A stretch of DNA of 63,309 bases, the filler included, from Reclinomonas americana ATCC 50394 (lineage: Eukaryota), in assembly GCA_048213135.1 (NCBI GenBank). It is 5 parts of 2 records of this genome, joined end to end, with 100 filler letters (N's around TTAATTAATTAA, not from the genome) between each part and the next. Parts side by side here need not be neighbours in the genome. Positions count along the whole stretch, not along the records: positions 1 to 31,277 come from PS015043.1; 4 more parts are not named here. One strand, 5' to 3'. Position numbers and translations under genes: made by a program. Below, piece after piece: positions 640 to 56,600 of the stretch. The stretch's first letter is position 1, and the number at the start of each line of letters is the position of its first letter. The notes below the pieces were generated by a model. It had not been told where the DNA came from. It was given only the letters and a program-made list of their open reading frames with translations, and searched no databases.

Positions 640-3600
640 TCACATGCCGGTGCCGAAACGCCCTGCAGACTTCCCACTCTTGCCCTCAAAATTGTACGCG
701 CCCGGTCCTGCAGCACGACTGTGTCATTATTTTCCTCGCTCTCTCTCCCATGTGTTCATGCAGCGCGCGACAAACCTGGCGACGTGTCATCTCTCCTGGC
801 GGCAAATCGCTGTCCGATAGAGAATCCGCCCCTGCTGCCTAGTTTGGGTACCGCCGGCGAGTTCTCGGCGGCGTACTGACCGGGACCCGGTGCCGCCGAC
901 TCGCCCTTGGTTATTCTCGTCAGAATGCCCATGACGCCGCCCTTGGGTTTCTCCTGGTTGTCGTACCGATAGGCACCCTTTGACGAGAGACAGGGGCGTG
1001 AGTCAGCAGGAGGGTGAAGGAGCTCATGCACGTCAATGTGCGTACCGGTCCAGGCCCAGACGCTTCGGTCGGGATCGCCAGGCGTCCCCCGATGGTGAAG
1101 CCGCCAGTGGATTTCATCTTCGCATGCGCTTCGTGTGCTTCGTAGGCGGCTGTATGGCGAAGCACAGAGATGAGAATGTGCGTGCGAGAGCACACAAAGA
1201 GTGACGGAGAATAGAAGAGTGAATGTGTGAGAGAGGGAATAAGAGAGAGAGAGAGAGACACACACACACACACACACACAAAGAGACAGATCGACAGACA
1301 TAGCACAGACGAGTGAGAGACTGTGAGTGAGGTCGAGCTGCATTGCGAAGAGCGTGCCCGGTGCACATGCGCATGACAGCACAGTGTGACTCGTACTCGC
1401 TCACAACTTACCTGGCCCTGGAGAAGCGTCGCGAACCGCCTGCATACACCCGAATCAGAAACAAAGTCGCAGGTGGCACAGTAAACAACCCGCCTCTCAC
1501 CTCCGCAATTCGTTTGGCGATGGTGATGCCACCGGTGGCCAGCGTCGATTTCAGTTCATACGCACCTGAAGTAATTAACATGTCAACACAAACCAGCAAC
1601 TCCTATCGCCTGTGCACAGATCTATCCTCGCGTCTTTCCGTCACTCCGGTTCTCTTTCTCAGTCACTCTCGACATCTCATTTTGTTTCATTGTCATGTTC
1701 TCCGACACGTTTCACTCACTCACTCGTCGTCCTTCACTGTCACTCTCCATCCTTCTCTCCTTTCCTGTTCTCCATTTCATTCTTCTCTGCCAATTCCTGC
1801 ATCCCTCTCTCGATTTCACTTCTCTTCATCTGCTACTTCACTCTCTGTCTCATTTTATTCGGTCTCTGTCACCTCTCTCTTGATCACTTTCACTTTCGGT
1901 CCGTATCTATTTCTTGCTCTTCTCTTCATAATCTCTTTTCTCGTCTGCACATCCAGGATCACACGATCCGCATAGCTCGCTTCTCTTCTTGTTGTTCGCT
2001 TCAAGAATCTTTCTCTCCTGTTGTCTCTCTTCGTTTCTGCTCCTTCTCCCTTCCCCCCTTCCCGACCCTCCCCCACACGCACCTGGCCCCGGCGCCTTAT
2101 CCGAATCGCTCTTCTCCGCCGGCCGTTGTGCAATCGTCACACCACCCTGCGAGAGCGTCGTGCGATACTCGTACGCGCCTGAAAAATTCGAGGTAAGCAC
2201 TTATCCAGACTCTGTTCTCTCTAAATCTACTCTTACCTGGCCCAGGAGACCTCTCCGCATCCTTCTTCTCCGGCGCTCGCTGTGCAATAGTGTGCGCCGG
2301 CGACGGATAGCGCACCACTGGATTGTAGGCTCCGGGACCTGGCAGCTGATCTTGTGCCGCCGTCGTCTGTCGTGCAGAAAGAGAATCGTGTGAGATTACG
2401 TGGCATTCATCCCTCTTGCGAGCGTTGGCAACCTTGTCTATTCACGGTGCCTCTATAACACTCATATTCTTTCAGTGTGTTCAGCTTCACTCACTCTCAC
2501 CCACTCATTCACACTTTCTCTCACACTCAATAGCACTCGCTCACTCTCTTCGTTCCTCTTTCCCTTACTCCTTCTCTCTCACACATTGCACTCACTCCCG
2601 CCCTGTCTCCCCTCAAACTTCTCTCCTCTATCCCTCTCCTCACCCATGTCTCTCCATGTCTCCTCTCCATTGCTTCTTCTTTCCGTCCGTCTTGCATGTC
2701 ACTTTCTGTCTCGCTCAAACTACCTAACCGACTGCATCTTTCCCTAACTCTCCCTCACTCCCTTCCCTCTCTCACTCATTGCGCTCACTCCCGCCCTCTC
2801 TCCCCTCAAACTTCTCTCCTCTATCCTTCTCCTCACCTCTCCCCTCCATTGCTTCTTCTTTCCGTCCGTCTTGCATGTCACTTTCTCTCTCACTCACTCA
2901 CTAATTCACTCACACTACCTGACCCGCCGCAATTACTCGCTCACTCACTCACTCTCACTCTTTCACGCACTCAGTCACTCACTGCACTCACTCCTTCCCA
3001 CTCTCTCCTCTCACACACATATTTACAGCACTCTGCGCTCATACACTCACTCACTCACTGCCCTTTCTGCCTTCTCAAACTTCTCTTCCTTGTCCCTCTC
3101 CTTTCGCATGTCTCTCCCATGTCTCCCCTAGATTTGCCGCTTCTTTTCCCTTCTTCTGCTGTGTCACTTTCTCTCTCACGCACTCCCGCTCCCTCACCCA
3201 CTGCAATCACTCTCTCTCTCTCTCTCTCTCTCCCCACCTCCTTCTCTCCTTGCCCTTTCCCCCATCCCCCTTCCCCTTTCCTTCCCCCTTTCTCCCCACC
3301 TCCTTCCACCTCCCCTGGATGGTAACGCCGGCATTGCGCGACTGCTCATGATACTCATACTGCCCTGGTCCTGGCAAGTCGGCGGCNNNNNNNNNNNNNN
3401 NNNNNNNNNNNNNNNNNNNNNNNNNNNNNNNNNNNNNNNNNNNNNNNNNNNNNNNNNNNNNNNNNNNNNNNNNNNNNNNNNNNNNNNNNNNNNNNNNNNN
3501 NNNNNNNNNNNNNNNNNNNNNNNNNNNNNNNNNNNNNNNNNNNNNNNNNNNNNNNNNNNNNNNNNNNNNNNNNNNNNNNNNNNNNNNNNNNNNNNNNNNN

Positions 3601-6292
3601 NNNNNNNNNNNNNNNNNNNNNNNNNNNNNNNNNNNNNNNNNNNNNNNNNNNNNNNNNNNNNNNNNNNNNNNNNNNNNNNNNNNNNNNNNNNNNNNNNNNN
3701 NNNNNNNNNNNNNNNNNNNNNNNNNNNNNNNNNNNNNNNNNNNNNNNNNNNNNNNNNNNNNNNNNNNNNNNNNNNNNNNNNNNNNNNNNNNNNNNNNNNN
3801 NNNNNNNNNNNNNNNNNNNNNNNNNNNNNNNNNNNNNNNNNNNNNNNNNNNNNNNNNNNNNNNNNNNNNNNNNNNNNNNNNNNNNNNNNNNNNNNNNNNA
3901 GCTGTGCGCTCCGGCGGTCGGTGTGCCATGGTGAACGCGGGACCAGCGCGTTTGAGGTCTTGCGGTGAGTAGGCACCTTCACACACTCTCGAGAGTCAAC
4001 ACATGCATTCCCCTCTGCACACGAATCAAAGCACCAACGCACCTGGTCCGGGAATGGTGGCTGCACCAGTGGCCTCGCTGGCGATGGCATATCGTGACGC
4101 AATGGTCCACTGTGGCGACGCAGAGCGCAGACCGCGGCCAGGATCGTAGGTTCCTATTAGGATGTGCCATGAGGTCTTTTCTCCTTAAACACAAACACAC
4201 TCATAAACAATACCTGGACCGGGCTGTGGTTCTTGCGCAGACGCCTGCCCATCAATTGCTACGTGAGAGAGAGAAGCGGAGGAGGCAGAGAGTTCGAAAC
4301 GAGACAACGCACCGCCTCTTTCCATCGCTGGCCAATCGTAAACGCCTTGCCGGGTGACGTATCTGACACCTTGTACGCACCTGCAAACGATTTGGTGTTC
4401 AGATCACAACTTTTCCCAAAATACACCAGCCTTTGCAATACAAACACACCTGGTCCCGGAATGGTGTCCACCTGGCGCTCCTCGTAGCGCTGCGCAATGG
4501 TAAAGGCCGGAGCATTGCTTCGATCCTGTGGTGCGTAGGCCCCTGGTCCTGGCAGATTCTCCGTGGAGGTTTCCTGCCAGCGACCGAGCACGAGCGCGCC
4601 GCGAGTTGACATTTGGCTGTACTGCTTGTAAGCACCGGGTCCTGCACACCGGCGCGAGTGATGAGTACAATCTCTTCTTCCTGTCTACTTCTTTTTTTCA
4701 TCCCCCAACCCACCAGGACTCTCGCCAGCCTCGTGCTCCTTCAGGCGCTGGCCAATGGTGAACTCTGGTCCATGATCCTTTGGCGCGTACATGTACGCTC
4801 CTGTCCCCCATACACACTTCAGCGCCACGTGCACGGTTAGACAATCACCAAGCACAAAACACACACCTGGTCCTGGTCCTTCAGGTACACCCTCCTGCGA
4901 TTTCAGCCGCTGTCCGATGGTCCATTGCGGTAGGTGATGCAGGTGCGAGTCACCGGGGTTGTAGGCACCTGGCGTATAAACGTGAGTATGGCTGGCTGCC
5001 CACTTCTTCTCATGGTCTTCATCACACACGACGCACCAGGTGCCGGAGTCTGATTGTTGCCGCTCGAGTCTGTCGGTCGGCCCACCAGGGTTGCCGACGG
5101 CGCGTGCGAGTGCGTGGAAGGATTGTAGTCGGCCGGTCCTGGACCAGCGCGCGTCTCAGAGCTGCTGAGCCGCTCGGCAATGGTCCATGCCGGCGCTGCG
5201 TGCAGATTGCTGCCAGTGGGATTGTATTCACCTGTGAACGGGATGGTCAGCGTTGCTGACACTGACGACGATGACAGACTCTCTTGAACAAGATACGAAC
5301 CGGGTGCGGGCGTCTTTTGCGTTGTCGCCTCTTGCCACCGCGAGGCAATCGTGTACGCAGGCCCAGACATGCCCTCCGGCAGCGAGTACTCTGCCGGGCC
5401 TGGAGTGGCAGCACTGGTGGCTTGCGAGAATCGTTGACCAATGGTGAAGGCCGGAGCGCTGGCACGATTCGCATCTGACGCCTGGTACTCGGCTGGACCG
5501 GGAGTGACGGCCACATTGCTCGACTGCGACCACCGACTGGCCATCGTGAATGCCACACTCGATCGCATCTCCGGCAGCATGTACGCCGCTGGACCTGGTG
5601 TGTCGGTGGCGCCGCTCGACGCAGACAGGCGTTCTCCCATTGTGAAGGCCGGGGCGCGCGCACCCATCGAGTCCGACACGGTGTAATCGGCCGGACCCGG
5701 CATCTTATCAGGAGGTGCTTGCTCCAGACGGCCAGCAATGGTGAATGCGGGATGCCTTCTCTCCTCAGGCAACGTGTACGCGGCCGGACCTGCATCGAGA
5801 CATTCAGCGGAGGCAGGCACTGGGACGACGAAAGCTCTCCTCCATCTCCATTTCCAAACCTGGAGTTGTCGATGGCTGCGCGGCCGCATGTCGCTCGCCA
5901 AGAGTGAACGACGGGGCGCGACGACCAGTCGGATCGTGTACAAGATAGGCGGCTGGCCCGGGAGTATCCGACTGGTTAGATGCAGCCGCCAGACGCTCGC
6001 CAATGGTGAACGCAGGTCCATGTGGTCCCTCAGGCAGCAAGTATGCCGCCGGGCCTGCATCAGGTATTCACATTCAGCTCACACCACCTTCTCCCTCTCC
6101 CTCTCTCTCTCTCTCTCTCAGCTGCAGTCATNNNNNNNNNNNNNNNNNNNNNNNNNNNNNNNNNNNNNNNNNNNNNNTTCGGTCGGTTCCCCTCCGACGG
6201 ACGACGACGAACGTTAGTCGCCCGGGCCCGGCCGTCGCTACTACGTAGTTACTACTACTACTACTACGCTCACCACCTACCTCCTCCTCCTC

Positions 6293-6330
<38 letters not shown>

Positions 6331-9300
6331 TTCCGCCAACCTGGTGTATCAGCATTCGTCGGCCGTGTAGACTCATGACGCTGACCCATGGTAAACGCCG
6401 GACCGTGAGGAGCGAGTGAGGCGCTGAGAGAGTAGTCCGCGGGACCTGGCAGCTGCTCCGGTGGCACATCACGCCACCGCTGGCCAATGGTGAACGCCGG
6501 ATGACGACGCTCGTCGGGAATCAGATAGGCAGCCGGACCTGCATGGAATCGATGAGAAGAGCACAAGAAGCAGCGGTGGGAGAAAGGAGGAGCAGCGCAG
6601 TGAAACCTGGTGTGTCTGAGTTGGTGCCCGTCGGCAGATTCCACCGCCCGCCAATTGTGAACGCCGGACCGTGCGGCCCGGTGGGATCGTTTGCCATGTA
6701 GTCAGCGGGACCAGGTGCCTGCTCCGGCGGCGCGTCACGCCATCGTTGTCCGATCGTGAATGCCGGTCGTCGCTTCTCGTCGGGAATGAGGTACGCCGCC
6801 GGACCTGAGACAGCTTGTTAGAAGCCTGGGAGTCGATGGGGAAATGGTGCGGCACGTGATCAGCGTACCGGGATTGTCGGCATTGGAGGGCGCCAACAGT
6901 TCGTGTCGGCTCCCCATGGTGAATGCTGGTGCATTGGCACCCAGTGCATCGGCGTTGCTGTAGTCGGCGGGACCAGGTGTGGGATCGGCAGCAGCGTCAC
7001 GCCACCGCTGGCCAATGGTGAAGGCCGGATGCCGTCTCTCGTCGGGAATCAAGTAGGCCGCAGGACCTAACGAGAAGAACAATCAGCGAAGCGGAACTCA
7101 CCATCAGTCAACATAATATACGCAACCTGGCGTCTCCGTGTTGGTGCCGTCGGGAATGTCGTGGCGACTGGCAATCGTGAATGCTGGGCCGTTCGGGAAC
7201 GAGTTGGGCAAGAGATATGCGCCCTGTGCGGCGATTGTTGGTGTGAGAAAGCGATCGCATCTCTCGCGGGATGCAGACAACATGCACTCACAGGACCCGG
7301 CTGCTGCTCCGGTGGTGCATCTTTCGCTCGACCTTGAATGGAGAAGGCTGGTCCTTTCTGCGCAGCACAACGAAGACTCAGATGCACATTACTGCAAGTA
7401 TCGCGAATCAAGGTCCGACGCAACAGACAAGTCTCCAGGATTGTACGCCGCCTGCACAGGGAGGGGAGCAAGCACTGTGAGCATCGATAGACAGTGGCGC
7501 TGCGACAAGAAAAAGACGCAACTGGACCGGGATTGTTGTCGCCTTGCGGTGGCTCGTGGCGCCCGGTGATGGTGGCACTCGGACCGCGGGACGCGTCGCC
7601 AAGAGTGTACGCCCCCGGACCAGGACCGTCGGTGGCCACCACCGAGGTGTCTCGTCGTTGTTGGATGGTCCAGAACGGTCCCACCTGTATCCCACCAAAT
7701 GAGATACACATACTGCTGCACAACACTCTCTCTGGTCACGGAAACACACCGGCGGCAACTCAGGGGCGTAGTCGGCCTGCGTGGGTAGAGCGATGATTAA
7801 GAACACGAATATATCTCCCACGTTAAGGAGCAGATGATGATCTTCTTCGCACCGGTCCTGGCAACTTGGTGCTCTCACTAGCCTGCTCGTGTCGACCAAG
7901 CAAGACGGCACTGGGAGCGCGACGGAAGGTGCTGTCACCCGACGAGTAGGCACCTGCACCAGGCAGGTCATTCATGAGATAGAGGTGCGCAAGCAACGGG
8001 TCGTTGTCAATGCCGCACCTGGTCCGGGTCCATCGTGAGCCTCCACACTGTCACGCGACTTGTGAGGAATCGACCAGAATGGTCCCTGCGGCGGCAACTC
8101 CGGTGCATAATCCGCCTGCATTCACGCGTACACACAATCACAAAAACTGCGTCCAGAGAACGCCGAACGGTTCGCCAAGTGTGTCTCACCGGCCCAGGAG
8201 CACGCTGCTGTTCCGTACTCGCGTGGCGCTGTTGGATTGTGAATGCAGGCGCAGATGAGGGAAGTCGCGGGTCGTACGCTGCGGGTCCAGGAGTGACAGA
8301 CGCCCGTGCCTCCGCGTAGCGACTGGCGATGGTCCATGCAGGTGTGTGTGAAGCAGGCAAGTTTACAGAGTATGCAGCCTGCACGGGAAGGTGAGCATCA
8401 ATCATATCACGGAATAGCAAGTGAAACCACGCACCGGTCCTGGTGTAATGTCGGCCTCTGGCAGCTTGGTGCGATAGGCAATCGACACGGCAGGTGCGCG
8501 GCGGAATGTGCTGTCGCCCGGAACATAGTCCGCTGTGCAGATCACAGAGAGCGAGAGATAAGCGATGCGGGAAGAGGGAATGCGATTGAACAAGGACACT
8601 TTCTACGGCACCTGGACCAGGACCCTGCGCTGCGATCGAGTCGGTGGACTTGCCAAGCATCGTCCACTTTGGTGCATTCTGGTCGCAGTTGATGTCAGCC
8701 ACGCACGCATATACACACACACACACACGCATACACACATACAGAGAGAGAGAGAGGGAGGGAGGAAGAGAGAAATGCGTAGATTCTGGATTTCCCTGTT
8801 CTATCTCCTCTCTTCCCCCTCCTTTCCTCTCAGTCCCAAACTCAACAGAAGGCAAGTGTGGATCATATGCAGCCTGCAAATGGACAACATATCAGCGCAT
8901 CGCCCAACGCAGAAATAAGAAGGTTGCTGCTCTGTCGAAAAAACGCACCGGTCCTGGCGTTCGACTCGGCTCTGCAGAGCGCGGACGGTGCTGAATGCTG
9001 AAGCGCGGCGCCGATCGACGAACAGGGGAGTCATTGATGGCATAGTCGGCAGGCCCAGGCATGTCGTCGGCTCGTCGCTCGTGGTAACGCCTTTGAATGG
9101 TGAACAGCGGTCCTTTCTGTCGTACACGCAAGTGAGAACCGAGGAGTGCGATTCCGCGAAGTGCATGACTCGAAAACAACGCACAGCCATTGGAGACACT
9201 GAGTATGCTCCAGGTCCTGCGCGAAATCGGGAGGGAGTGAGCGTGAATCCTCAATCGCTTCGACAAATACAAAGCACGGACGCACCGGGGGTTCTTGACG

Positions 9301-12300
9301 GCGGCGCCGAGCTCGGTCGCTGCGCAATCGAGTGTGCTGGTGCGGAACGGCGAACGGGAGTGAGCGACACATTGTACGCCGCTGGCCCAGGTCCATTGCC
9401 CTCGATGCGTTCCTTGCGACGACCGGCAATGGTTACGCCGCCAGAACTCTTGGGAACAGCCGGTGAATATGCAGCGGGTCCTGGGCTGTCGTCGCGCGCC
9501 GGGGAACTGAAGCGTTGCGCCATCGAGAACTTGGGACCCGACTTTTTCGTCGACAATGCGTGGTCACGCGGAGCGTATGAAGACTGCGCGTGTACAAATG
9601 AGTCATGAAGGAGAACGCGAGGTCAATTATTCAATCATGCCGACAAACCGGTCCTGCAGCCATCAATCAAACATGCATGAGAACGTCATCACACGAAAAT
9701 TGAGGGTCAGTGAGAACTCACCAGGAGCTCGATGCACGGGTGCCGAGGCCGGTCGAGAAGCAATCGTGAATGCCGGTCCAGAAGACTTGTCCTTGACTGC
9801 GTACGCGGCCTACAGAGTCACACATGGTGAGATCGAAGGAACCTCGCAGCAGCAGCAAGTCAAGATGACGCACAGGTCCGGGAGTCTGCTCGATTCGTTG
9901 CGCACGACGGCTGCTTGCCATGGTCCACTCGGGGAAGTGCATCCGGTTGGAAGACGTACGATCGCGTGGGTTGTACTCGGACTGCATCAGAGAAAGTGAG
10001 TTGCAAAACGACAGAATGCGATAGATGCGGACACGCATTCTCACCGGTCCTGCATCGCAGAAGGAGCATGTCAGAAAAAGAAAAGTCAACAGAAGCAGGT
10101 GTGCACACACTTACCAGGAAGACGCTCGCGCGGGGCTGACTGAGACCGCCCAGCAATAGTGTGCGCAGGAGCACGCGGGTGCATTGATGAGAATCGCGCA
10201 TCGGGCGAGTACATGCCAGGCCCGACAGCCGAGGTCTCGTCCGGAAGATCGTGGCGACCAGGCATGGTCCACGCTGGTTGCGACCGATGGGCCGACGACA
10301 TGCGATCATTGGGCATGTATCCACCGGGTCCAGGACCATCGGGGCGCGCCTGCAACGGGTCACCCAAGCGCATACCGATTGTCCACGACGCAGCGAGCGG
10401 GTGCTGCGATACCATACGATCTTGCACATTGTATGCAGCCGGTCCCGGTCCGGCAGTGGTGTACGCACCGTCGTCGTCTGCTCGTCCAGGCATGGTCCAC
10501 GCCGGTGGCGCAGGGAACTTGGAGGAACGGCCATCTGACGGTCGGTAATTGCCCTGCGTGGCGGCATTGGTGAGCACATGAGGAAGGCATTGAAGACAGA
10601 GAGTTGCATGCCGCTCCATACCGGTCCTGCACAAATATGCGACGTTAGTTTCCTCAACATAACAAGGATGACAGAAGCGTTGATTTTCGTACCTGGCGTG
10701 GCGTCTGCCGGCAGGTCGTGATATCGACCCTGCATGCTGTACATGGGACCGCGACCTGGTGCTGGTAGCGAGTAGTGCGCAGGTCCTGATATACGAGGTT
10801 GCACACAGTCAGCGGTGAGATGCAGGCAATGCAGTGAAGTGGAAATGAAATCGACTGACCAGGGCCAGGAAGCCATTCGGCTTCGGCATAGCGCTGACCA
10901 ATCGTATACGCTGGTCCAGAGGGGTGCTGCGACAGGTGCCGCGGATCGCCGCTGTACATGCCCTGCAATCAGAAGCAAAAAAAGTGAGTCACCAGCGCCG
11001 CGCATCACTGACATCACTCGGTGAATCACCGGTCCTGCACAGAGAAGATGAGCCGAAAACCGAAGGGGAAGCGTGAAGGAACAACCAAGCGTAACACGCA
11101 CCAGGAGTCATTGGCGGAGCACTCTGGTCGTATCGGCCAGCAATCGTGAACGCTGGCCCACGAGACAGCTCCGGGAGAGTTACCGAGCCCTGAATCGATA
11201 CCTGTCAACTCTTTTTTCTTCCAACACGCGAGGAGAGATTGGAGGTACACACACCGGTCCAGGCATGGAGGTCGGTTCGTGCCCTTCACCGCGGCCAGGC
11301 ATGGACCAAGCGGGTGCAGCTGGATGCGTTGAATCGCGCACATCTGACGGTCGGTAGTCACTCTGCACGCACGATAAAGCAACACAAATGAGCATCATCT
11401 CCAAAGAGAGACAATAATATACGATCGCACCGGTCCTGGCACCAAGAAACCAAGTCAGCATTCTGGGGCGAAAAAAACACCATTCACCAAGAGACACATA
11501 CCGGGTGACGCCTGTCGCGGAGGTGCACTGCGCGGGCGACTGGACATGGTGAACTCCGGTGCGCGTGGTCCGCGCATGCCAGGCGAGTATGCTCCCGGTC
11601 CTGCGAGCGCCGATTAATAAAACATGAGCTCGCTTTCGCAACAATACAGCGCACAAACCTGGCGTGCCGGCCATCAGTGCCTCCTCGTACCGACTGGCAA
11701 TGGTGTAGGCCGGTGCCATGGGTCGTGTGGACAGTGTGCCGTCGTGCACCGAATATGCTCCCTGGAAGCATAGGAAGTGAGCGTTACGTGAGAGACGGGG
11801 TCAAGTGGGATGATGCTGCACAAACCGGGCCTGCGATGGGGAGAAAGTGAGCGAGAGAGGTCAAAGCAGAACGAGAGCAGGGAGAAATCTCACCGGGGTT
11901 GTCCGGCGGTGACGATGACGGCAGTCGTGCGCCCATGACGTGCGCCTGACCACGATCGGTTGCCGGCAGTGTGTACGCACCCTGCGTGTCAAACGATTAG
12001 CAAACAATAATCATCACAGCATCAAGCCATGTGTCACGCAACGGGTCCCGGAGCAGGATGCTCGTCACGAGAAGGGTAGCGACCGGCAATCGAGTATGCA
12101 GGCGCATTGGGGTGCACGGCGAGAACGCGATCGTTGCCATCGTATGCAGCCTGTGAGGCGATCATCAATGATATTGCAGTTTGCGTCGCCCCTGCACAAA
12201 AAACGTTGACAAACCGGTCCTGGTGTTGGCTCTTGTGCAGCATCGTGATGACGTCCCTGGATGGAGAACCGCGGAGCCAACTTGCGAATAATGGCCTCGA

Positions 12301-14164
12301 CAATGTGGTAGTGAGCGGGACCTGGCGTCGAGATGCTGCGAGCAGCCTCCTGTCGCTGACCTATGGTAAACGCAGGTCCCTGTGGACCGGTTGGAGTCGA
12401 ATAAGCTCCCTGATCGAGGACGGTGAGACAGCGACTGAGATTAGAAACATCGAGTGCACGAACCGGTCCAGGCGACATCGAACGCTCTTGCGGTTCGGGA
12501 TGGCGACCGGCGATCGTGACTCCGTGTACCGCAGGTGAGTGTGGACTGTACGCGCCCTGTGGAGGAAACGAGCGATCAGCACAAACACCTTGGGTAGTGA
12601 CGTGCCGAGAACGAGTACGAACCGGACCAGGAGTTGCCTGTCGATCCGAAGCAGCCTCTTCGCGCCTCGGTACAATCGAGTACGCCGGAGCAGTTGGGTT
12701 TGTCGATAACCTGCCATCGTCGCTGGTGTAGGCACCCTGCATGTAGCTTGATTAAGCTCGAGGACAGAAGACGGATTTGAGTCGCAGCCACGAACCGGTC
12801 CCGGTTGCGCGCTGTCGGTGTCAGACGAGGCGGGATGGCGCGACTGAATGCTCCACGACGGAGCGTTTGGATGCTGCGAGTCCATGCGCTGCTGTGGATT
12901 GTATGAACCCTGTGCAACAGGCAGCGCAGAATGAGTCGCCAAACACACGCCTCGGCAACCAGTGACCGCCACTTACCGGTCCTGGTGATGCTGATCTGTC
13001 CTGTGGATCAGGCGATTGTGGGTGGCGCGACTGCAAGCTGAATGCGGGGGCGGTCGGATGCTGTGAGTCCATGCGCTGCTGCGGGTTGTATGCGCCCTAC
13101 AAAAGACGGTGATCTGCGTGAGTGCAATACGAGAAAAGGGACGCTGCGCCCGACGAACCGGTCCCGGCGCTGCAGATCCGTCTGGCGCGTCCGACGACTG
13201 AGGGTGTCGCGACTGAATGCTCCACGCTGGAACATTTGGATGCTGTGAATCGGTGCGCTGTTGTGGAGTGTATGCTCCCTGCGTGTGACAGGAAACGGTT
13301 AGAATCGCCATCTGCAGGAGAAAATGACGTCCACACAAACCGGTCCTGCGCCGAGGAATACACACAGTAAGCATTCAGAACACAGGCAGCAGAAACAATA
13401 GACGGCACGCGCACAAACACATACCAGGTGACGAATCGCCGACTCCGCGAGGAACACTGGCAGATCGGCCGCTGATCGAGTACGCAGGCGCAGCACGACG
13501 AACAGGTGACACGTCGGCATTGTATGCACCCTGCACGTGATGCCAAGTAAGCGACATGCAGCAATGGGGCGGTACTGACAGCAAACAGACACACCGGTGC
13601 AGGCGTCCCTTGTTCCTCGCGCGGCTGCGCATGTCGTTCACCAATCGTCCACCGTGGCACCGTTGACTGCATGAGCTCCACGTTAACATTGTGCGCGCCT
13701 GGTCCCGGAGTCGGCTCGTGCCGACCGTCAGCCGACAATGGTCGAGTGCCCATGGTAAATGCTGGCGCATTTGGATGCCGGGAGGAGCTGTCGACTTGAG
13801 AATTGTATTGACCCTGCATCCACGAGTGAGCTGATGAAGTAGAAGTAAATGTGTGAGCATGTGCGCAACTGGGGCAGGCGTTGGCTGTGGATTGAACAAT
13901 GATGGAGGTCGACCAGCGATGGAGTGTGCCGGTGGGGTGGGGTTGCGCGATGACACGCGATCGTTGACAGAATATGTGCCCTGCGTCGTAGAGAAAGGAA
14001 GGGGGACACAGAGGCAAAGATGAGGCACGAGATAGAGAGAGAAGGTATGGGGAGGGGGACTGGGAGAGAGAATAAAGAGATGGGGTGGCAGAGAAAGAAG
14101 GAAATGGGGAATGAGAAGGGGGCACTGGGAAATAACAGAGGCAACAGTGAGGCAGAAAGGGGGC

Positions 14165-14211
<47 letters not shown>

Positions 14212-46833: not shown

Positions 46834-49800
46834 AGTCACCAGAGCTGGAAAAAGAGATGATCAACCATAACAATAGCACCAAGAGAGCACATTACAACGC
46901 GAAACACCCAAGTCAAAGGGAGAAGGACGAAGTGGTGAAAACAAGAATAGCCAAAGTGCATCCCTTTTCGACTCACCCTTCAGCTGCTTCATCTTCTTCA
47001 GCATGGTCTCCTCCGAGTATTGCGGGTTGCCACGCGAGTCGACCAGCGGCTCGAGGAAGCGAATGGTGGACAGGTTCTGCTCAATGACCACGTCCAGCTC
47101 GCATCGATCGTCCTCGCACTGGAAGAGGATTTCGTCAAACTGGCTGCGCTTGAAGATGTTGGTGGCGCTGTCCTCGCTACCGGCCGGCATCGACACCAGG
47201 CGGTCGTTGAGGACAGAGTCGCACATTGGGTTGCGGCCCTGGTGACGCAGGCCACTTGTGCGCTCCTGCACGAAGGAAAAGGGAGGGGAGAAGGGTGAGG
47301 GAAGAGGGAGAAGGAGAAGGGCGAAGGGGGGATGGAGGCGAAGGGAGGGATGAAGGGGAAGGGAGAAGGGAGAGGAAAATGGAGAGGAGGAGTCTGAGAA
47401 GGAGAAGGAGACGGATGGAAACGGAAAAGAAAGAGAACAACAGGGAAGCTGAGAGGAAAAGAAAGGAGATGCAAGCATAAATAGAGCGAATGAGACACAG
47501 AGCGAGAGGGACGAGTAAGAGGGAAATGAAAGCGAAGCTGGGAGAGGGAACAAAAAAGAGAAGTGGAGGAACATGAAGGAGAGAAGGGGCAGGCAGATGC
47601 AACAAGCAAGAGAGGGAACAAGCAAGAGAAGTCAAGGAACATGAACGAGAGGAAAGTGACGCAAGATGTAAGAGAGCGAAAGAAACAGGGGAGAGAGGAA
47701 GGGACGAGAGACAAAAGGGCAAGAGAGAAGAGAGGAAGAGAAGGAGGGTCTTCTCCCTCGCCCTTTCTGCCTCTCCCTTCTCTTCCTTCTCTATCTTACA
47801 CACCTTCTTGTCGATCGGGCGATAGCTGGGGCCATACTTGGACTTGGCATTGGCGCCAGTCCCCTTGGTGTTGACCATGCGCAGTCCTTCGCGCAACTCT
47901 GTGTGCCAGCAGTCAGCCACCTCACACTTCTCCTCCCCTTTCCGCCTCCCGACTCACCCTGCTCCAGCTGCTCCGAGCTCACCAGCCGACCAAACTCGCG
48001 CCGCAAGTCACCATAATCGGCAATCAGGCGATCCACCGACAGCACAAAGTCCTCGCGGCTCAGTGCGCCACCCTCGCGCAAGAACGCCTGCATCTCCACA
48101 ATCACGTCGCCGGCGAGACGCGGATCGCCCGAGCGCATCTTGATGTTCTCCAAGAACGCCACAATGCGGTTCGTCGGCTCCATTGACCGCTTCGTGGTCT
48201 TCTTGGCGCCCTTGCCGCCCGCACCACCGGCAGCCGCCGAAGCACCACCTGCCACTCCCTGTGCATTACATGCATTGTGAAATTTCATCGTCAGTGCTTG
48301 TCCAGAAATGTTTTCCGAACACGCAGAGTACTAAATTGGGAGTTGACAAGAGAATATCTGACACAAACCTTGCCAGCGCCGCCAATGGGAGGCACCATGC
48401 GCGAGGAGCCGCCCTGTTGCTGCTGCTGCTGTTGTTGCTGCTGCTGCATCTCGCGTTGCATTTGCTGCTGTTGCTGTTGGCGCGCAGCGCGGGAAAGACC
48501 ACCGCCAGCACCTCCGCGACCGCCCGACACAGTGGACGAGGGGAGGAGGCCGGGATCGGGACGCAGCTGGTCCACCGGCACCGGCATGAACTTGGAGAAT
48601 TCTTCCAGCAAATCTGTATTCCCTGCAAAGCCCGCTTCGTCAGCGGTCGCAAAAAAAGCATGGGGCGATGAGGATGAACAGGTAGCGCACCCGGTTGGTC
48701 GGCAAACAGCACCGTCACTTGCTCGTACACCGTATTGATGCTCGCCTGCTTCTCTTGGTACGAGTGCAGAATGTTGAGGAAGCGACGATACACCTCCGGG
48801 CGATCCTCGTAGCGTTTCTGTGATTTGAAATGAGCGCAATGTAATGGCCGCACAACGCACAAACACACAAACCTTGATCTTGGTGACGTAGTGCACTGCG
48901 CGCAAACAAAGCAGAAGAGTGAGTTCCACAGCAAGAACGGCACCTCCACATGTCCACAACAACTCACCGGCCTGGTCAAAGTCAATCGGCGACTTGTTGT
49001 CGTCATTGGGCCCGCCGAGCAATCCACCGCCGCCACCTCCGACCGCATATCCCGCACCTCCATTGGCGTGCCCGACCATTTGCTGCACACCGAGAGCGGA
49101 CACGGCCGGATGATGCTGCTGCTGCTGCAGCGGATGATGATGCAACACGTGCAAGCCGCCCGGCACACCCGCCCCGAGCGCTCCCGCCGTGTGGTAACCC
49201 GCCAACGACATGCTCTGTTGCTCGTCGATACGATAGCCTAACACGAAAAAAGGTGAGTGTCGCTTGTGTAGTGCGCGGCTTGTGTAGACACGTACCGGGC
49301 GGCAGGAAGGCATTGAAGCCGAGAATGAGATGCGGGTAGCCCTGGAACAACTCCGAGACGCGCTCAATGACGCCCGACGTCTCCAGCGAGCCACTCTTGA
49401 AGCTGCACGCAGAGGAGGGAAGTGAGTGCGTGGAGAGAGAGTGTGTGTGTGTGACAAAAAAGAAGAGTAACTCTTTCATAATCTCGAGAAATTGCGCGTA
49501 CACATCGCCACGCGAATTCGCAAACGTCTGCTTCACTTGCTCCAAGTACGCCAACGCATCGTCGACTTTGAGTTGCTTTTGCGGTGGCGCTCTGTGGCAC
49601 AAAACAAACAAACAAAGAAAAAATTGAGTATCTTTTTTTGTCTCGTCAGACTGCGCCTTCTGTGTGTCACTCTCTCACTGCGTGTCTGTGTGGCAAAGAG
49701 GGCAGCGATCGCACAACGAGACAAGCGTTGTCTTGTGTGTGTGTGTGGCGAGCTGACAGGACACACTGCGCGCAAATGCAACACGTGCTGGTGCCTGCTC

Positions 49801-50637: not shown

Positions 50638-53600
50638 CCATCGCTCACTTGCACAATCACCTGTAGTCCGTTGCCACTCAGACCAGCCACATTGGATCGC
50701 AAGTCGGTGCCGCTGATGTTGAACGACGCCTGATGGGTACCACCAACAATCGTGTACGTCAGTGTCTGGCCAGTGTTGGGATCAGTGGACGACAGTGTGC
50801 CGACAACGCCATTCATGGCCAGCGGGGGACTGTACGTCGAGGTGGACAGAGTCGGCGGCGTCGGCACAACGTTGGCTGTCACAAAGGCAACAGAGTGTGC
50901 GAATGAGCAGGTGCAAACGGGAAGAGGCAAAAGAACAAGCCACCTTACTGACCTTCGCTGATCGTAAATGTGGAACTCGCTGTACCACCTGCTCCATCGC
51001 TCACTTGCACAATCACTTGCAGGCCGTTGCCGGTGAGACCAGCAACATTCGACCGCAAGCTGCTGCCGCTGATGTTGAACGATCCCATGCTGGTGCCGCC
51101 CGTGATGGTGTACGTCAGCGTCTGGCCCGTATTGGCGTCTGTCGAGGCGAGAGTGCCAATGACGCCATTTGTGGCAAGTGGCGGGGTGTAAGTGCTGCTT
51201 GACAGTGTGGGCGCCGTCGGATTCACATTGGCTGCACAACAAAACAAAAGCGATGGGTTAACGAGAAACAAGAAGGACGAGCGCAGTGCGCGTCGCTCCA
51301 ACCTTCGTTGATGAGGAATGTCGCTGTGTTGGTGCCACCCGCTCCATCGTCTACTTGCACAATCACTTGGAGGTTGTTGCCCGTCAGCCCACCCACACTG
51401 GAGCGCAAATCCGTTCCACTGATGTTGAAGGATGACTGATGCGTGCCGCCAACAATCGAGTATATCAATGTCTGGCCAGTGTTCGGGTCCGACGAAGCGA
51501 GAGTGCCGATGACGCCGTTGGCCGCCAATGGTGGCACGTACACACTGGACGACAACGTTGGAATTGACGGCACCACATTGGCTGATTGGGAGGTAGATGC
51601 AGTGAGTACGTCAGACGCACAATGATTGACGCCTTTGGAGAGAGACGCACCTTCGTTAATGACAAATGTTGCAGTTGTCACACCACCAGCACCATCGCTG
51701 ACTTGCACAGTCACTTGCAGCGCGTTGCCCGTCAGGCCAGCGACATTCGAACGCAGACTCGAGCCGCTGATGTTGAACGACGCTTGATTCGCGCCACCCA
51801 CAACAGTGTACGAGAGTANNNNNNNNNNNNNNNNNNNNNNNNNNNNNNNNNNNNNNNNNNNNNNNNNNNNNNNNNNNNNNNNNNNNNNNNNNNNNNNNNN
51901 NNNNNNNNNNNNNNNNNNNNNNNNNNNNNNNNNNNNNNNNNNNNNNNNNNNNNNNNNNNNNNNNNNNNNNNNNNNNNNNNNNNNNNNNNNNNNNNNNNNN
52001 NNNNNNNNNNNNNNNNNNNNNNNNNNNNNNNNNNNNNNNNNNNNNNNNNNNNNNNNNNNNNNNNNNNNNNNNNNNNNNNNNNNNNNNNNNNNNNNNNNNN
52101 NNNNNNNNNNNNNNNNNNNNNNNNNNNNNNNNNNNNNNNNNNNNNNNNNNNNNNNNNNNNNNNNNNNNNNNNNNNNNNNNNNNNNNNNNNNNNNNNNNNN
52201 NNNNNNNNNNNNNNNNNNNNNNNNNNNNNNNNNNNNNNNNNNNNNNNNNNNNNNNNNNNNNNNNNNNNNNNNNNNNNNNNNNNNNNNNNNNNNNNNNNNN
52301 NNNNNNNNNNNNNNNNNNNNNNNNNNNNNNNNNNNNNNNNNNNNNNNNNNNNNNNNNNNNNNNNNNNNNNNNNNNNNNNNNNNNNNNNNNNNNNNNNNNN
52401 NCGAGAGCGGGGCTCGGCAGACTACTTGGACAACAGACGATGCAAACCTTCGCTGATGGTGAACGTAGACGTGTTGGTGCCGCCTGCTCCATCGCTCACT
52501 TGCACAATCACCTGCAGTCCGTTGCCACTCAGACCAGCCACATTGGATCGCAAGTCGGTGCCGCTGATGTTGAACGACGCCTGATGGGTACCACCAACAA
52601 TCGTGTACGTCAGTGTCTGGCCAGTGTTGGGATCAGTGGACGACAGTGTGCCGACGACGCCATTCATGGCCAGCGGGGGACTGTACGTCGAGGTGGACAG
52701 AGTCGGCGGCGTTGGCACAACATTGGCTATCACGCAGGCAACAGAGTGTGCAAGTGAGCGGGTGCAAAAGGGAAGAAACAAAAGAACAAGCCACCACACG
52801 GACCTTCGCCGATCGTAAATGTGGAACTCGCTGTACCACCTGCTCCATCGCTCACTTGCACAATCACTTGCAGGCCGTTGCCGGTGAGACCAGCAACATT
52901 CGACCGCAAGCTGCTGCCGCTGATGTTGAACGATCCCGAGTTCGTGCCGCCCGTGATGGTGTACGTCAGCGTCTGGCCCGTATTGGCGTCTGTCGAGGCG
53001 AGAATGCCAATGACGCCATTTGTGGCGAGTGGCGGGGTGTAAGTGCTGCTTGACAGAGTGGGCGCCGTCGGATTCACATTAGCTAGGCAAGAGACAAGAA
53101 NNNNNNNNNNNNNNNNNNNNNNNNNNNNNNNNNNNNNNNNNNNNNNNNNNNNNNNNNNNNNNNNNNNNNNNNNNNNNNNNNNNNNNNNNNNNNNNNNNNN
53201 NNNNNNNNNNNNNNNNNNNNNNNNNNNNNNNNNNNNNNNNNNNNNNNNNNNNNNNNNNNNNNNNNNNNNNNNNNNNNNNNNNNNNNNNNNNNNNNNNNNN
53301 NNNNNNNNNNNNNNNNNNNNNNNNNNNNNNNNNNNNNNNNNNNNNNNNNNNNNNNNNNNNNNNNNNNNNNNNNNNNNNNNNNNNNNNNNNNNNNNNNNNN
53401 NNNNNNCGATGGGTCAGCGAGGACAAGAGAGACGAGCGCAGTGCGCGTCGCTCCAACCTTCGTTGATGAGGAATGTCGCAGTGTTGGTGCCGCCTGCTCC
53501 ATCGTCTACTTGCACAATCACTTGGAGGTTGTTGCCCGTCAAATTCGACACAGCTGTCACGAGGCTGTTCCCACCACTGACTGAAAACAGAGACTGATTG

Positions 53601-56600
53601 GTGCCGCCAGAGACATAGTAAGTCAACGACTGCCCCGAGTTTGGGTCTGTCGACGACAGCATGCCAATGACGCCGCCAAGTGCCAGTGGCGGCACATATG
53701 TCGACGACGACAGCGTTGGTGCAGTTGGTATCACGTTGACTGCAGCCACGAGGGGTGAACAACATTGCGGATAAACAAATAAGGAACAGGATTGACTGAC
53801 GCAACGCTCATCAATGTCGAATACAAAAGAGTTCGTACCACCAGAGCTGGCCGTGACAGTGATCTCAACATGCAAGTTGTTCCCGACAAGGCCCGCGACG
53901 TTGGATCGCAGGTCCGTGCCACTAATGTTGAAGGATGCTTGGTCGGCGCCGCCCGTGATCGAGAATGTGAGCGTGTCACCAGCCATGGCAGGTGTTGCGG
54001 AGAGAGTGCCAATCACGCCATTCAGAGCACGCGGCGGCGTATACAACGTTGTCGACAAGACGGGGACCGTAGGGCTCATGTTGGCTGCAAGGAAAGAGTC
54101 AGCGCACCAATGGCGATCTCATTACAGATCATCTGCATCACACAAACCTTCCGAAATGTTGAACGTGGACGAGCGAGTTCCACCAGCTCCGTCGCTGACA
54201 GTGACAATCACTTGAAGTCCGTTGCCGGTGAGGCCAGACACACTGGAGCGTAGACTCGTGCCGCTGATGTTGAATGATGCCGAGTTGGTGCCGCCGGTGA
54301 TGGAGAAGGTCAGTGTCTGACCGGTGTTGACATCGGTTGACGCCAGAGTGCCAATTACTCCGTTCAGCGCGAGCGGCGCCACGTACAAGTTGGTGGAGAG
54401 TGTCGGCGCAGTGGGTGCCACATTGGCTGTGCTCATAGAAATGTGTGATGAAGTGGATTAGCAGTGAATGAGCGCATCGCCTTACCTTCAGATATGTTGA
54501 ACGTTGTCGTATTCACACCGCCAGCGCCGTCGCTCACTTGCACAATCACTTGCAGGCTGTTGCCAGTGAGGCCTGCCACATTGGATCGCAGGTTGGTGCC
54601 GTTGATGTTGAACGAGGAAGAGTTGGTGCCACCAACAATGGAAAATACGAGTGTCTGGCCCGTGTTCGGGTCTGTCGACGACAATGTGCCAATCACACCA
54701 TTCAACGCGAGTGGTGGGGTGTACGTGGTCGATGACAGAGCGGGAGCAGTGGGGACCACGTTGGCTGTGCAGAGCGGCGTCAGCGACTGAGACAGAGAAG
54801 CACACAGTATGAAGCACAGGAAGGCATGATCACCTTCGCTGATGGTGAACGTCGTGCTCGCCGTGCCGCCTGCTCCATCACTCACTTGCACAATCACTTG
54901 AAGGTTGTTACCCGTCAACCCAGCCACATTCGATCGCAAACTCGTGCCACTGATGTTGAAAGAAGCTGAGTTGGTGCCGCCCGTGATCGTATAAGTCAGC
55001 GTCTGGCCAGTGTTGGGGTCCGTAGACGACAGCGTTCCAATTGTTCCGTTGAGAACGCGTGGCGGAGTGTAGGTCGAGGAGGACAGCGTTGGAGCACTCG
55101 GCGCAACATTCGCTGCGAAAAGGTGAGGACATAAACCACACAGACGTCACACCGAACGGCTTAAAAAGCGGAGGGTACACGCACCCTCATTGATCGTGAA
55201 TGTCGTGCTTGCCGTTCCGCCTGCTCCATCGCTCACTTGCACAATCACTTGCAGATTGTTGCCAGTGAGGCCAGCAATGCTGGATCGCAAGCTGGTACCG
55301 CTGATGTTGAATGACGCTTGATTCGTGCCACCGGTGATCGTGTACGTGAAAGTCTGACCAGTGTTGACATCCGTCGACGCAAGGGTGCCGATCACTCCGT
55401 TCGAGGCAAGTGGCGGAGTGTACGTTGACAAAGACAGGGTCGGCGCAGTCGGATTCACGTTCGCTGCCATGGTCACGACGAATGAGTCACACACCAAACT
55501 CATAACATCACTCACAAATTCTCGCGCATACCTTCGTTGATGGTGAAGGTTGTCGTTGCCGTCAGCGTTCCGTCACTGACGCGCACAATCACTTGCAACC
55601 CGTTGCCCGTGAGGCCGGCCACATTCGATCGCAGACTGGTTCCACTGATGTTGAAGGAGGCTAGATTCGTGCCACCGGTGATGGTATAGGTGAGAGTCTG
55701 ACCGGTATTGACATCGGTTGCCGACAGCGTGCCGATCACTCCGTTTGAGGCAAGTGGTGGAGTATACGTCAACGAAGATAACGTTGGTGCCGTCGGCGCA
55801 ACATTGACTGTAACAAAAAAACAATATTAATCACGACAAACATACTACTCTATCGTTGAAAGCTTGTGGAGCACAACGCACCTTCGCTGATGGTGAACGT
55901 GGCGCTTGCCGTACCACCCGCTCCATCACTCACTTGCACAATCACTTGCAGGCCGTTGCCTGTGAGACCAGCCACATTCGAGCGCAGACTGGTGCCACTG
56001 ATGTTGAACGAAGCCGAGTTGGTGCCACCGGTGATCGTGTACGTCAGTGTTTGACCGGTGTTGACATCTGTTGACGCCAGAGTGCCGATTGCTCCATTCA
56101 GCGCAAGCGGCGGCATGTATGTCGATGAAGATAGGGTCGGCGCAGTCGGATTCACATTGGCTGCGATGGACGATGAGTATGCACAACCCAATCTATCCGA
56201 GTAAAAGGGAAGTACCTTCGCTGATCGTGAAAGTCGTGCTTGCTGAGCCGCCTGCTCCATCGCTCACTTGCACAATCACTTGCAAACTATTGCCCGTGAG
56301 GCCAGCCACATTCGATCGCAAACTGGTTCCACTGATGTTGAATGAAGCGGAGTTGGTGCCACCCGTAATTGTGTATGTCAGTGTCTGACCCGTGTTGGGG
56401 TCGGTCGACGCCAGAGTGCCGATCACTCCGTTCGAGGCAAGTGGCGGAGTGTATGTCGACGACGACAGGGTCGGTGCAGTCGGATTCACGTTCGCTGCAA
56501 CGGATACGAAGAGTGAGCAACCACGACCAACTCGTTCCCCATATCAATTGACAACACAGACCCTCATTGATCGTGAATGTTGTACTTGCTGTTCCACCTG

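Follow-up and report, generated by a model that had tools for sequence, protein, structure and literature searches.

The stretch of DNA described here (the window; 63,309 nucleotides, filler included) consists of five parts of two records of the genome of Reclinomonas americana ATCC 50394 (Eukaryota; assembly GCA_048213135.1), and its first part (positions 1 to 31,277, from PS015043.1) carries a giant gene for a repeat protein of the SHIPPO/ODF3 type. Judged from the sequence, seven micro-exons of five nucleotides in this gene are very probably real, each of them essential for the reading frame and each giving the Gly-Pro of a Pro-Gly-Pro (PGP) motif. That these 5-mers are coding exons needed for frame and motif had been proposed in a first-pass annotation of the window, and every sequence-based test (gene model, cost of omission, conservation, cross-species profile and frame) agrees with the proposal. 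The annotation gave minus-strand sequence together with plus-strand coordinates; all seven segments were found at those coordinates, on the minus strand, in a region that forms the middle of the host gene.

The consensus CAGGMCCGGT, which covers the 5-mer together with its flanking splice-site bases, was found 13 times, always on the minus strand, compared with 0.30 expected matches, and none of 100 shuffled sequences reached 13. Six of these matches (7851, 8433, 8947, 12213, 12975 and 14619) are ordinary exon ends of the form ..CCA GGA CCG|gt that adjoin one intron only. At the seven micro-exon sites, by contrast with such ordinary ends, intron-like sequence precedes the CAG, and the upstream exon ends in CCN G, followed by GT. 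In all seven cases the 5-mer is preceded by CAG and followed by GT, and its flanking introns measure 62-79 nt, within the 54-79 nt range of the gene, so that the segments qualify as micro-exons. The upstream exon always ends in phase 1 and the downstream exon always begins in phase 0, as had been claimed; inclusion of the segment completes the Gly codon, encodes the following Pro and restores both reading frame and PGP (7/7). An independent derivation of the flanking intron lengths (68/65, 65/63, 66/68, 67/67, 66/68, 63/64 and 79/62 nt) equaled the earlier values in all seven pairs. The other details of the annotation were likewise recovered: a single synonymous change from GGA to GGC (GCCCG at 11826, compared with GACCG in the other six), and three predicted junction peptides (RAPGPSSY, RLPGPSEY and DNPGPGAY), all present in the conceptual translation. 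Regarding the arrangement of the six clustered copies in consecutive blocks of about 400 bp, four spacings (395, 401, 408 and 396 bp) conform to the description, whereas one is longer (577 bp).

Gene structure was modeled by a Viterbi procedure whose components are a three-periodic coding model, a background model for introns, matrices for donors and acceptors and a prior on length; stop codons are followed through exon junctions, and an exon may be as short as 1 nt. For training of the splice matrices, 26 short introns were used, none of which adjoins the seven sites. The model selects 5-nt exons at all seven sites, and the modeled stretch from 13990 to 6324 comprises 43 introns and 1558 stop-free codons, with every repeat boundary reading as the family motif. 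(Note that the parse below approximately 2100 is unreliable.) Forbidding single micro-exons costs 13.1, 21.1, 12.8, 19.0, 10.3, 12.6 and 20.6 nats, and forbidding all seven together costs 109.5 nats. The best substitutes in the model are then single introns of 110-225 nt that are unrelated across the seven loci; their splice sites are poor, one donor is GC, and the PGP is removed or garbled in every case. A shifted canonical donor or acceptor that restores the frame was found at none of the seven loci, the sole exception being the GC donor at the 11030 locus.

The fit of the product to related proteins was assessed with a repeat profile built from 27 repeats of a transcript-derived Gefionella protein of 3374 aa (P0003), against which the local protein of the micro-exon model and that of the best alternative were scored. 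The micro-exon product fits better at all seven loci, by 6.0, 10.8, 4.2, 2.1, 10.3, 10.0 and 4.3 bits.

With the micro-exon as anchor, the seven loci differ in just one base, the synonymous one, across the ten columns of CAG|GNCCG|GT; the columns flanking this core hold 0.41-0.45 bits, about the level of seven unrelated sequences. The identity within intron interiors is 0.573 among the upstream and 0.588 among the downstream introns, compared with 0.549 for unrelated and 0.548 for shuffled introns; suspected paralogous intron pairs and pairs within one locus are also at background identity. The repeats that follow the micro-exons are mutually 28-55% identical. Exon and splice sites are thus conserved amid diverged introns, in a comparison among paralogues only. 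The arrangement has outlasted the saturation of all its surroundings, which argues for selection on correct splicing. Codon use within the micro-exons is narrow, with GGA in six of seven and CCG in all seven; the 22 unsplit motifs use GGT (11), GGA (7), GGG (3) and GGC (1) for Gly, and CCC (9), CCA (6), CCG (5) and CCT (2) for the second Pro. Near-frozen synonymous positions are expected if all five bases of the micro-exon double as acceptor and donor context.

Introns in the main stretch of the gene measure 54-79 nt in 40 of 41 cases, and the 14 introns next to micro-exons fall at 62-79 nt; merged spans of both introns plus the micro-exon would measure 132-146 nt. With full matrices, exon positions included, 27 of the 28 flanking splice sites rank within the top 5.6% of decoy GT/AG sites, the exception being the acceptor before 11435. 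A branch-like YTNAY motif lies 9-27 nt from the 3' end in all 14 flanking introns.

Several points weigh against the micro-exons. The support from splice signals is partly circular, because the matrices contain exon positions that are shaped by the same motif, and intron-only positions place just 16 of the 28 flanking sites in the top 10% of decoys. Under either scoring, the acceptor before 11435 does badly (43.5% and 68.4% of decoys score at least equally), both donors at the 10622 locus are weak, and the YTNAY pattern is loose and often expected by chance. The gene model was self-written and trained on one gene only, and the seven copies are not seven independent observations because they are paralogues. 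Furthermore, a stop-free, frame-preserving single-intron alternative becomes available at every locus once the micro-exon is forbidden, and the one at 11030 is a legitimate-looking GC-AG intron that loses one Pro only.

These alternatives, together with the flanking sites that are weak by intron-only scoring, are what favors the view that there are no micro-exons and that each interval of 132-146 nt is spliced out whole, as a single long intron, via locus-specific, frame-keeping sites, leaving no clean PGP at the seven junctions. The alternatives share no pattern, however, and at 110-225 nt they depart from the size of nearly all introns of the gene; some of their donors score as low as -5.7. 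A single long intron at each locus was rejected by the forbidding test, at 10-21 nats each. Such introns would also leave the invariant CAG|GNCCG|GT amid saturated sequence unexplained and fit the cross-species repeat profile worse at all seven loci, so that this explanation is considered very improbable compared with seven separate micro-exons.

The micro-exons had been called frame-essential, and skipping any single one does lead to a premature stop, after 69, 70, 1, 131, 64, 73 or 6 codons. Such a stop at every site would be compatible with micro-exons that are real but only partly included, with skipping or in-frame intron retention yielding truncated or variant proteins, or down-regulation of the mRNA via premature stops. 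Retention of the introns at 11831-11893, 10627-10692 or 9982-10044 (63, 66 and 63 nt), which are in frame and stop-free, would insert 21-22 residues without truncation, and in Drosophila 68.9% of 411 microexons in an exon-microexon-exon arrangement are alternatively spliced (PMC8042270). On the other hand, truncation would forfeit about 40 more well-conserved downstream repeats, and no sequence mark singles out a regulated site. Human micro-exons of less than 10 bp whose length is not a multiple of three (non-3n) are constitutively spliced in five genes (PMC9929638). Partial inclusion is therefore regarded as unlikely, and constitutive use of the seven micro-exons as the better account.

The pattern would have no function if the locus were a gene copy that is decaying or not expressed, or if it had been created in assembly. 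Draft status of the assembly speaks for this, with 28 N runs in the window, of which the gene contains three; moreover, neither an RNA run listed for 9584-13424 nor a predicted protein of the host gene was found. Against this stand the length of the uninterrupted stretch (1558 stop-free codons across 43 introns) and the conserved splice cores, and collapsed or duplicated reads are ruled out because the seven sites have unique flanks. This explanation is hardly credible, and the least probable of those weighed here against functional micro-exons.

The origin of the micro-exons can be approached from the intron positions. Of the 75 introns in the whole-gene model, 61 occupy one of three fixed places no more than 6 nt from the PGPG motif: position A (phase 1; 19 introns) splits the Gly codon behind its first base, position B (phase 0; 30 introns) follows the second Pro codon of PGP, and position C (phase 1; 12 introns) lies one base beyond PGP, and hence beyond B. 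Seven repeats carry both A and B, and in these the intervening 5 nt (GA-CCG or GC-CCG) form a separate exon; A and C, or B and C, are combined in no repeat. Codon choice follows the intron type, with CCG in 15 of 21 B-only repeats and CCA in 9 of 10 C repeats, which fits introns at proto-splice-like sites. The upstream part of the gene (approximately 13.9-12.0 kb) has a B intron at each repeat boundary, with A added only at micro-exon 1, and the downstream part (below approximately 7.1 kb) has mainly A or C introns.

Repeats alternate between short (31-33 aa) and long (34-40 aa), and every micro-exon lies at a short-to-long junction. Based on exon lengths and best-partner identities, a four-repeat unit occurs approximately three times between 11981 and 9584, in the order 88-nt exon, micro-exon, 103-nt exon, A intron, 93-99-nt exon, micro-exon, 108-nt exon, B intron. 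One or two micro-exons would have arisen once and then been amplified by tandem duplication, six of the seven probably through ancient duplication of a four-repeat unit that already held two. Tandem Repeats Finder did not report the blocks of about 400 bp, which agrees with an old, diverged duplication. Regarding the ultimate origin, independent gain at two sites or micro-homology recombination between an A-type and a B-type repeat is possible. The identity between upstream and downstream introns of the same locus (0.52-0.64) equals background, and a duplication of one intron from the other is a possibility that these values neither favor nor disfavor.

Mechanistically, a micro-exon would result wherever an A and a B intron, 5 nt apart, occupy the same repeat. 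With introns of about 65 nt, splice sites would pair across the intron. The two flanking introns would be recognized separately (intron definition), since each has its own GT donor, branch-like motif and CAG acceptor, and they are probably removed in sequence, because a 3' splice-site complex and U1 can hardly share 5 nt. Either order of removal would leave the identical three exon bases beside each site, because the exon is longer than 3 nt. Inclusion would be essentially constitutive, because skipping shifts the frame. By analogy with the 4-bp exon of human MPC1, both sites may instead be defined simultaneously.

Recursive splice sites, known as zero-length exons from long Drosophila introns, leave nothing in the mRNA. 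The present sites resemble them in that 3' and 5' splice sites stand nearly back to back, implying stepwise removal, and differ in that AG and GT are separated by 5 nt without which the frame is lost; they are thus not recursive sites. Nor are the intervals stwintrons, in which one spliceosomal intron is nested in a splice signal of another, so that the donor, branch or acceptor of the outer intron becomes complete only once the inner one is gone: a separate GT, CAG and branch-like motif belong to every one of the 14 introns. The micro-exon genes (MEGs) of Schistosoma have exons of 6-36 nt in multiples of three that are freely skipped and thereby vary a secreted protein. They share with the present gene the many very short exons in series within one gene; assignment to this type was rejected, given exons of 5 nt whose skipping shifts the frame and a product that is a cytoskeletal repeat protein.

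In plants, exons of 1 nt are known from APC11 and VPS55, a 5-nt plus 12-nt pair of rice was validated by RT-PCR, and micro-exons are usually absent from annotations (PMC8831610). The expectation of the first-pass annotation that standard gene predictors would overlook the present exons agrees with that source. Like the plant ultra-short exons, those described here are tiny exons between spliceosomal introns, needed for the frame and for a conserved part of the protein, and evolutionarily conserved. Unlike the plant cases, with one or two per gene, a single gene here holds seven paralogous copies of one 5-mer; every copy interrupts the same repeat motif, and both neighboring introns have just about 65 nt. 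Human constitutive non-3n micro-exons include those of MPC1 (4 bp), TNNI1, KSR1, TMEM237 and MUSK, and the micro-exon of MPC1 is described as an 'exon island' defined by a 67-bp upstream 3' splice-site region and a 6-bp donor (PMC9929638). The likeness lies in a length that is not a multiple of three, so that missed inclusion leads to a premature stop; the difference lies in the flanking introns, which are long in MPC1 and short here. In Drosophila, exons of 3-7 nt have been sought (PMC8042270). Literature searches limited to one open-access library yielded neither a gene with identical non-3n micro-exons in series nor an account of intron positions in SHIPPO genes.

With a length of at least 16 kb, the host gene reaches from 16593 or beyond to about 700 and comprises approximately 74 repeat motifs and approximately 75 introns in the gene model. 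Its exons code for repeats of 31-40 residues with the signature PGP(G/A)xY. Three tested exons matched PF07004 (SHIPPO / sperm-tail PG-rich repeat) with E-values of 9.1e-14, 1.6e-08 and 1.7e-23 and scores of 51.9, 35.5 and 82.4 bits, compared with a curated cut-off of 20; with matches above the cut-off and approximately 74 copies of the motif in the conceptual protein, the gene belongs to this family. The closest solved proteins by sequence are ODF3/CIMAP1A, B and C in sperm doublet-microtubule structures (8otz, 8snb and 8iyj; E-values down to 1.7e-10). Among 1.84 billion representative sequences, 1154 relatives were found at E ≤0.001 and 24 at E ≤1e-30. The best of these are giant repeat proteins of flagellates, among them one of Stentor and the SHIPPO 1-like proteins of Gefionella okellyi (3374 aa, transcriptome-derived), Trypanosoma brucei (2395 aa), Volvox reticuliferus (1711 aa) and Hexamita inflata (1424 aa). 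ODF3/CIMAP1 and the giant flagellate proteins share with the host gene the PGPGxY repeat of PF07004 in long arrays, at an identity of only about 30-36%; the best relatives reach about 32-36% and belong to flagellates that are unrelated. By sequence, the predicted product is a ciliary or flagellar SHIPPO/ODF3-type repeat protein. For the 140-aa exon between two micro-exons, no protein relatives scored at near or longer lengths, and thus no protein, predicted or transcript-derived, turned up that crosses a micro-exon junction.

Further features of the host gene were observed outside the micro-exon loci. Three near-identical two-repeat units, each with an A-type intron, lie at 6324-7066 (minus) and look like a far younger tandem duplication than the micro-exon units. 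Just downstream of micro-exon 1, consecutive exons of 120, 120 and 114 nt (12796-13278, minus) encode repeats that are 70-72% identical, with a B intron after each; this triplet is another young duplication. Longer introns and spacers of the gene contain (GA)n/(CT)n and GA-rich microsatellites (14167-14260, 6296-6326 and 17268-17407), two of which adjoin assembly gaps. A modeled 13-nt exon (8624-8612) with a 222-nt intron (8612-8873 region, minus) is probably a mis-parse; by eye, an acceptor at 8679/8678 yields a 168-nt intron with a (CA)n-like microsatellite and a 67-nt exon that holds the expected second half of the repeat. Coordinates are summarized in Table 1.

Table 1. Predicted micro-exons, their flanking introns and the host gene, with positions counted along the window
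Feature	Position	Strand	Basis or remarks
Micro-exon 1, GACCG	13341..13345	minus	motif scan, gene model, junction translation
Intron upstream of micro-exon 1	13346..13424	minus	79 nt, position A, phase 1
Intron downstream of micro-exon 1	13279..13340	minus	62 nt, position B, phase 0
Micro-exon 2, GCCCG (synonymous variant)	11826..11830	minus	motif scan, gene model, junction translation
Intron upstream of micro-exon 2	11831..11893	minus	63 nt, A; in frame, stop-free if retained
Intron downstream of micro-exon 2	11762..11825	minus	64 nt, B
Micro-exon 3, GACCG	11431..11435	minus	motif scan, gene model, junction translation
Intron upstream of micro-exon 3	11436..11501	minus	66 nt, A; acceptor is the one weak site by matrix
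Intron downstream of micro-exon 3	11363..11430	minus	68 nt, B
Micro-exon 4, GACCG	11030..11034	minus	motif scan, gene model, junction translation
Intron upstream of micro-exon 4	11035..11101	minus	67 nt, A
Intron downstream of micro-exon 4	10963..11029	minus	67 nt, B
Micro-exon 5, GACCG	10622..10626	minus	picked by the model even before splice-matrix training
Intron upstream of micro-exon 5	10627..10692	minus	66 nt, A; in frame, stop-free if retained
Intron downstream of micro-exon 5	10554..10621	minus	68 nt, B
Micro-exon 6, GACCG	10045..10049	minus	motif scan, gene model, junction translation
Intron upstream of micro-exon 6	10050..10114	minus	65 nt, A
Intron downstream of micro-exon 6	9982..10044	minus	63 nt, B; in frame, stop-free if retained
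Micro-exon 7, GACCG	9649..9653	minus	motif scan, gene model, junction translation
Intron upstream of micro-exon 7	9654..9721	minus	68 nt, A
Intron downstream of micro-exon 7	9584..9648	minus	65 nt, B
SHIPPO/ODF3-type (PGPGxY) repeat gene	700..16593	minus	PF07004, motif map, segment-wise gene model, ODF3/CIMAP1 matches
Assembly N gaps inside the host gene	3387-3899, 6132-6177, 14212-14231		

The window as a whole has a G+C content of 56.5% among called bases. Exons of a Sin3-type co-repressor were located at 46861-49674 (minus), with PAH repeats and a Sin3_corepress domain (E-value 2.1e-21); the best relatives are 56% identical in the conserved domain, over a third of the query. A fragment of an SNF2-related ATPase lies at approximately 33235-33918 (minus), and these two genes confirm that the DNA is from a eukaryote. 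Two open frames at 53414-55146 (minus) showed weak matches to Big_9 (bacterial Ig-like), with 21.9 and 23.0 bits just under the curated cut-off of 23.6. A search of the window against Rfam yielded no match.

Tiny exons are already known, and seven of them in one gene are unusual. It is conceivable, as a tentative reading, that no series of obligatory non-3n ultra-short exons has been described before this one, which would have been created, and then multiplied, at places where a repeat motif holds two old intron positions 5 nt apart. If the micro-exons are real, the spliceosome of this organism would handle 5-nt exons between introns of about 65 nt routinely and accurately, and the gene would provide a natural system, with seven cases, in which to study the minimal exon under intron definition and to learn which intron is removed first; confirmed by transcripts, it would offer seven replicates of an exon far below the size that lets acceptor and donor complexes sit side by side. 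Two intron positions seen together 5 nt apart bear on the old debate whether introns slide or are gained independently at proto-splice sites, and near-coincident intron positions in homologous repeats could then be distinct introns rather than one slid intron. An annotation without these exons would split a protein of several thousand residues into frame-shifted fragments. More speculatively, skipping at single sites could yield a microtubule-binding ruler protein in discrete lengths.

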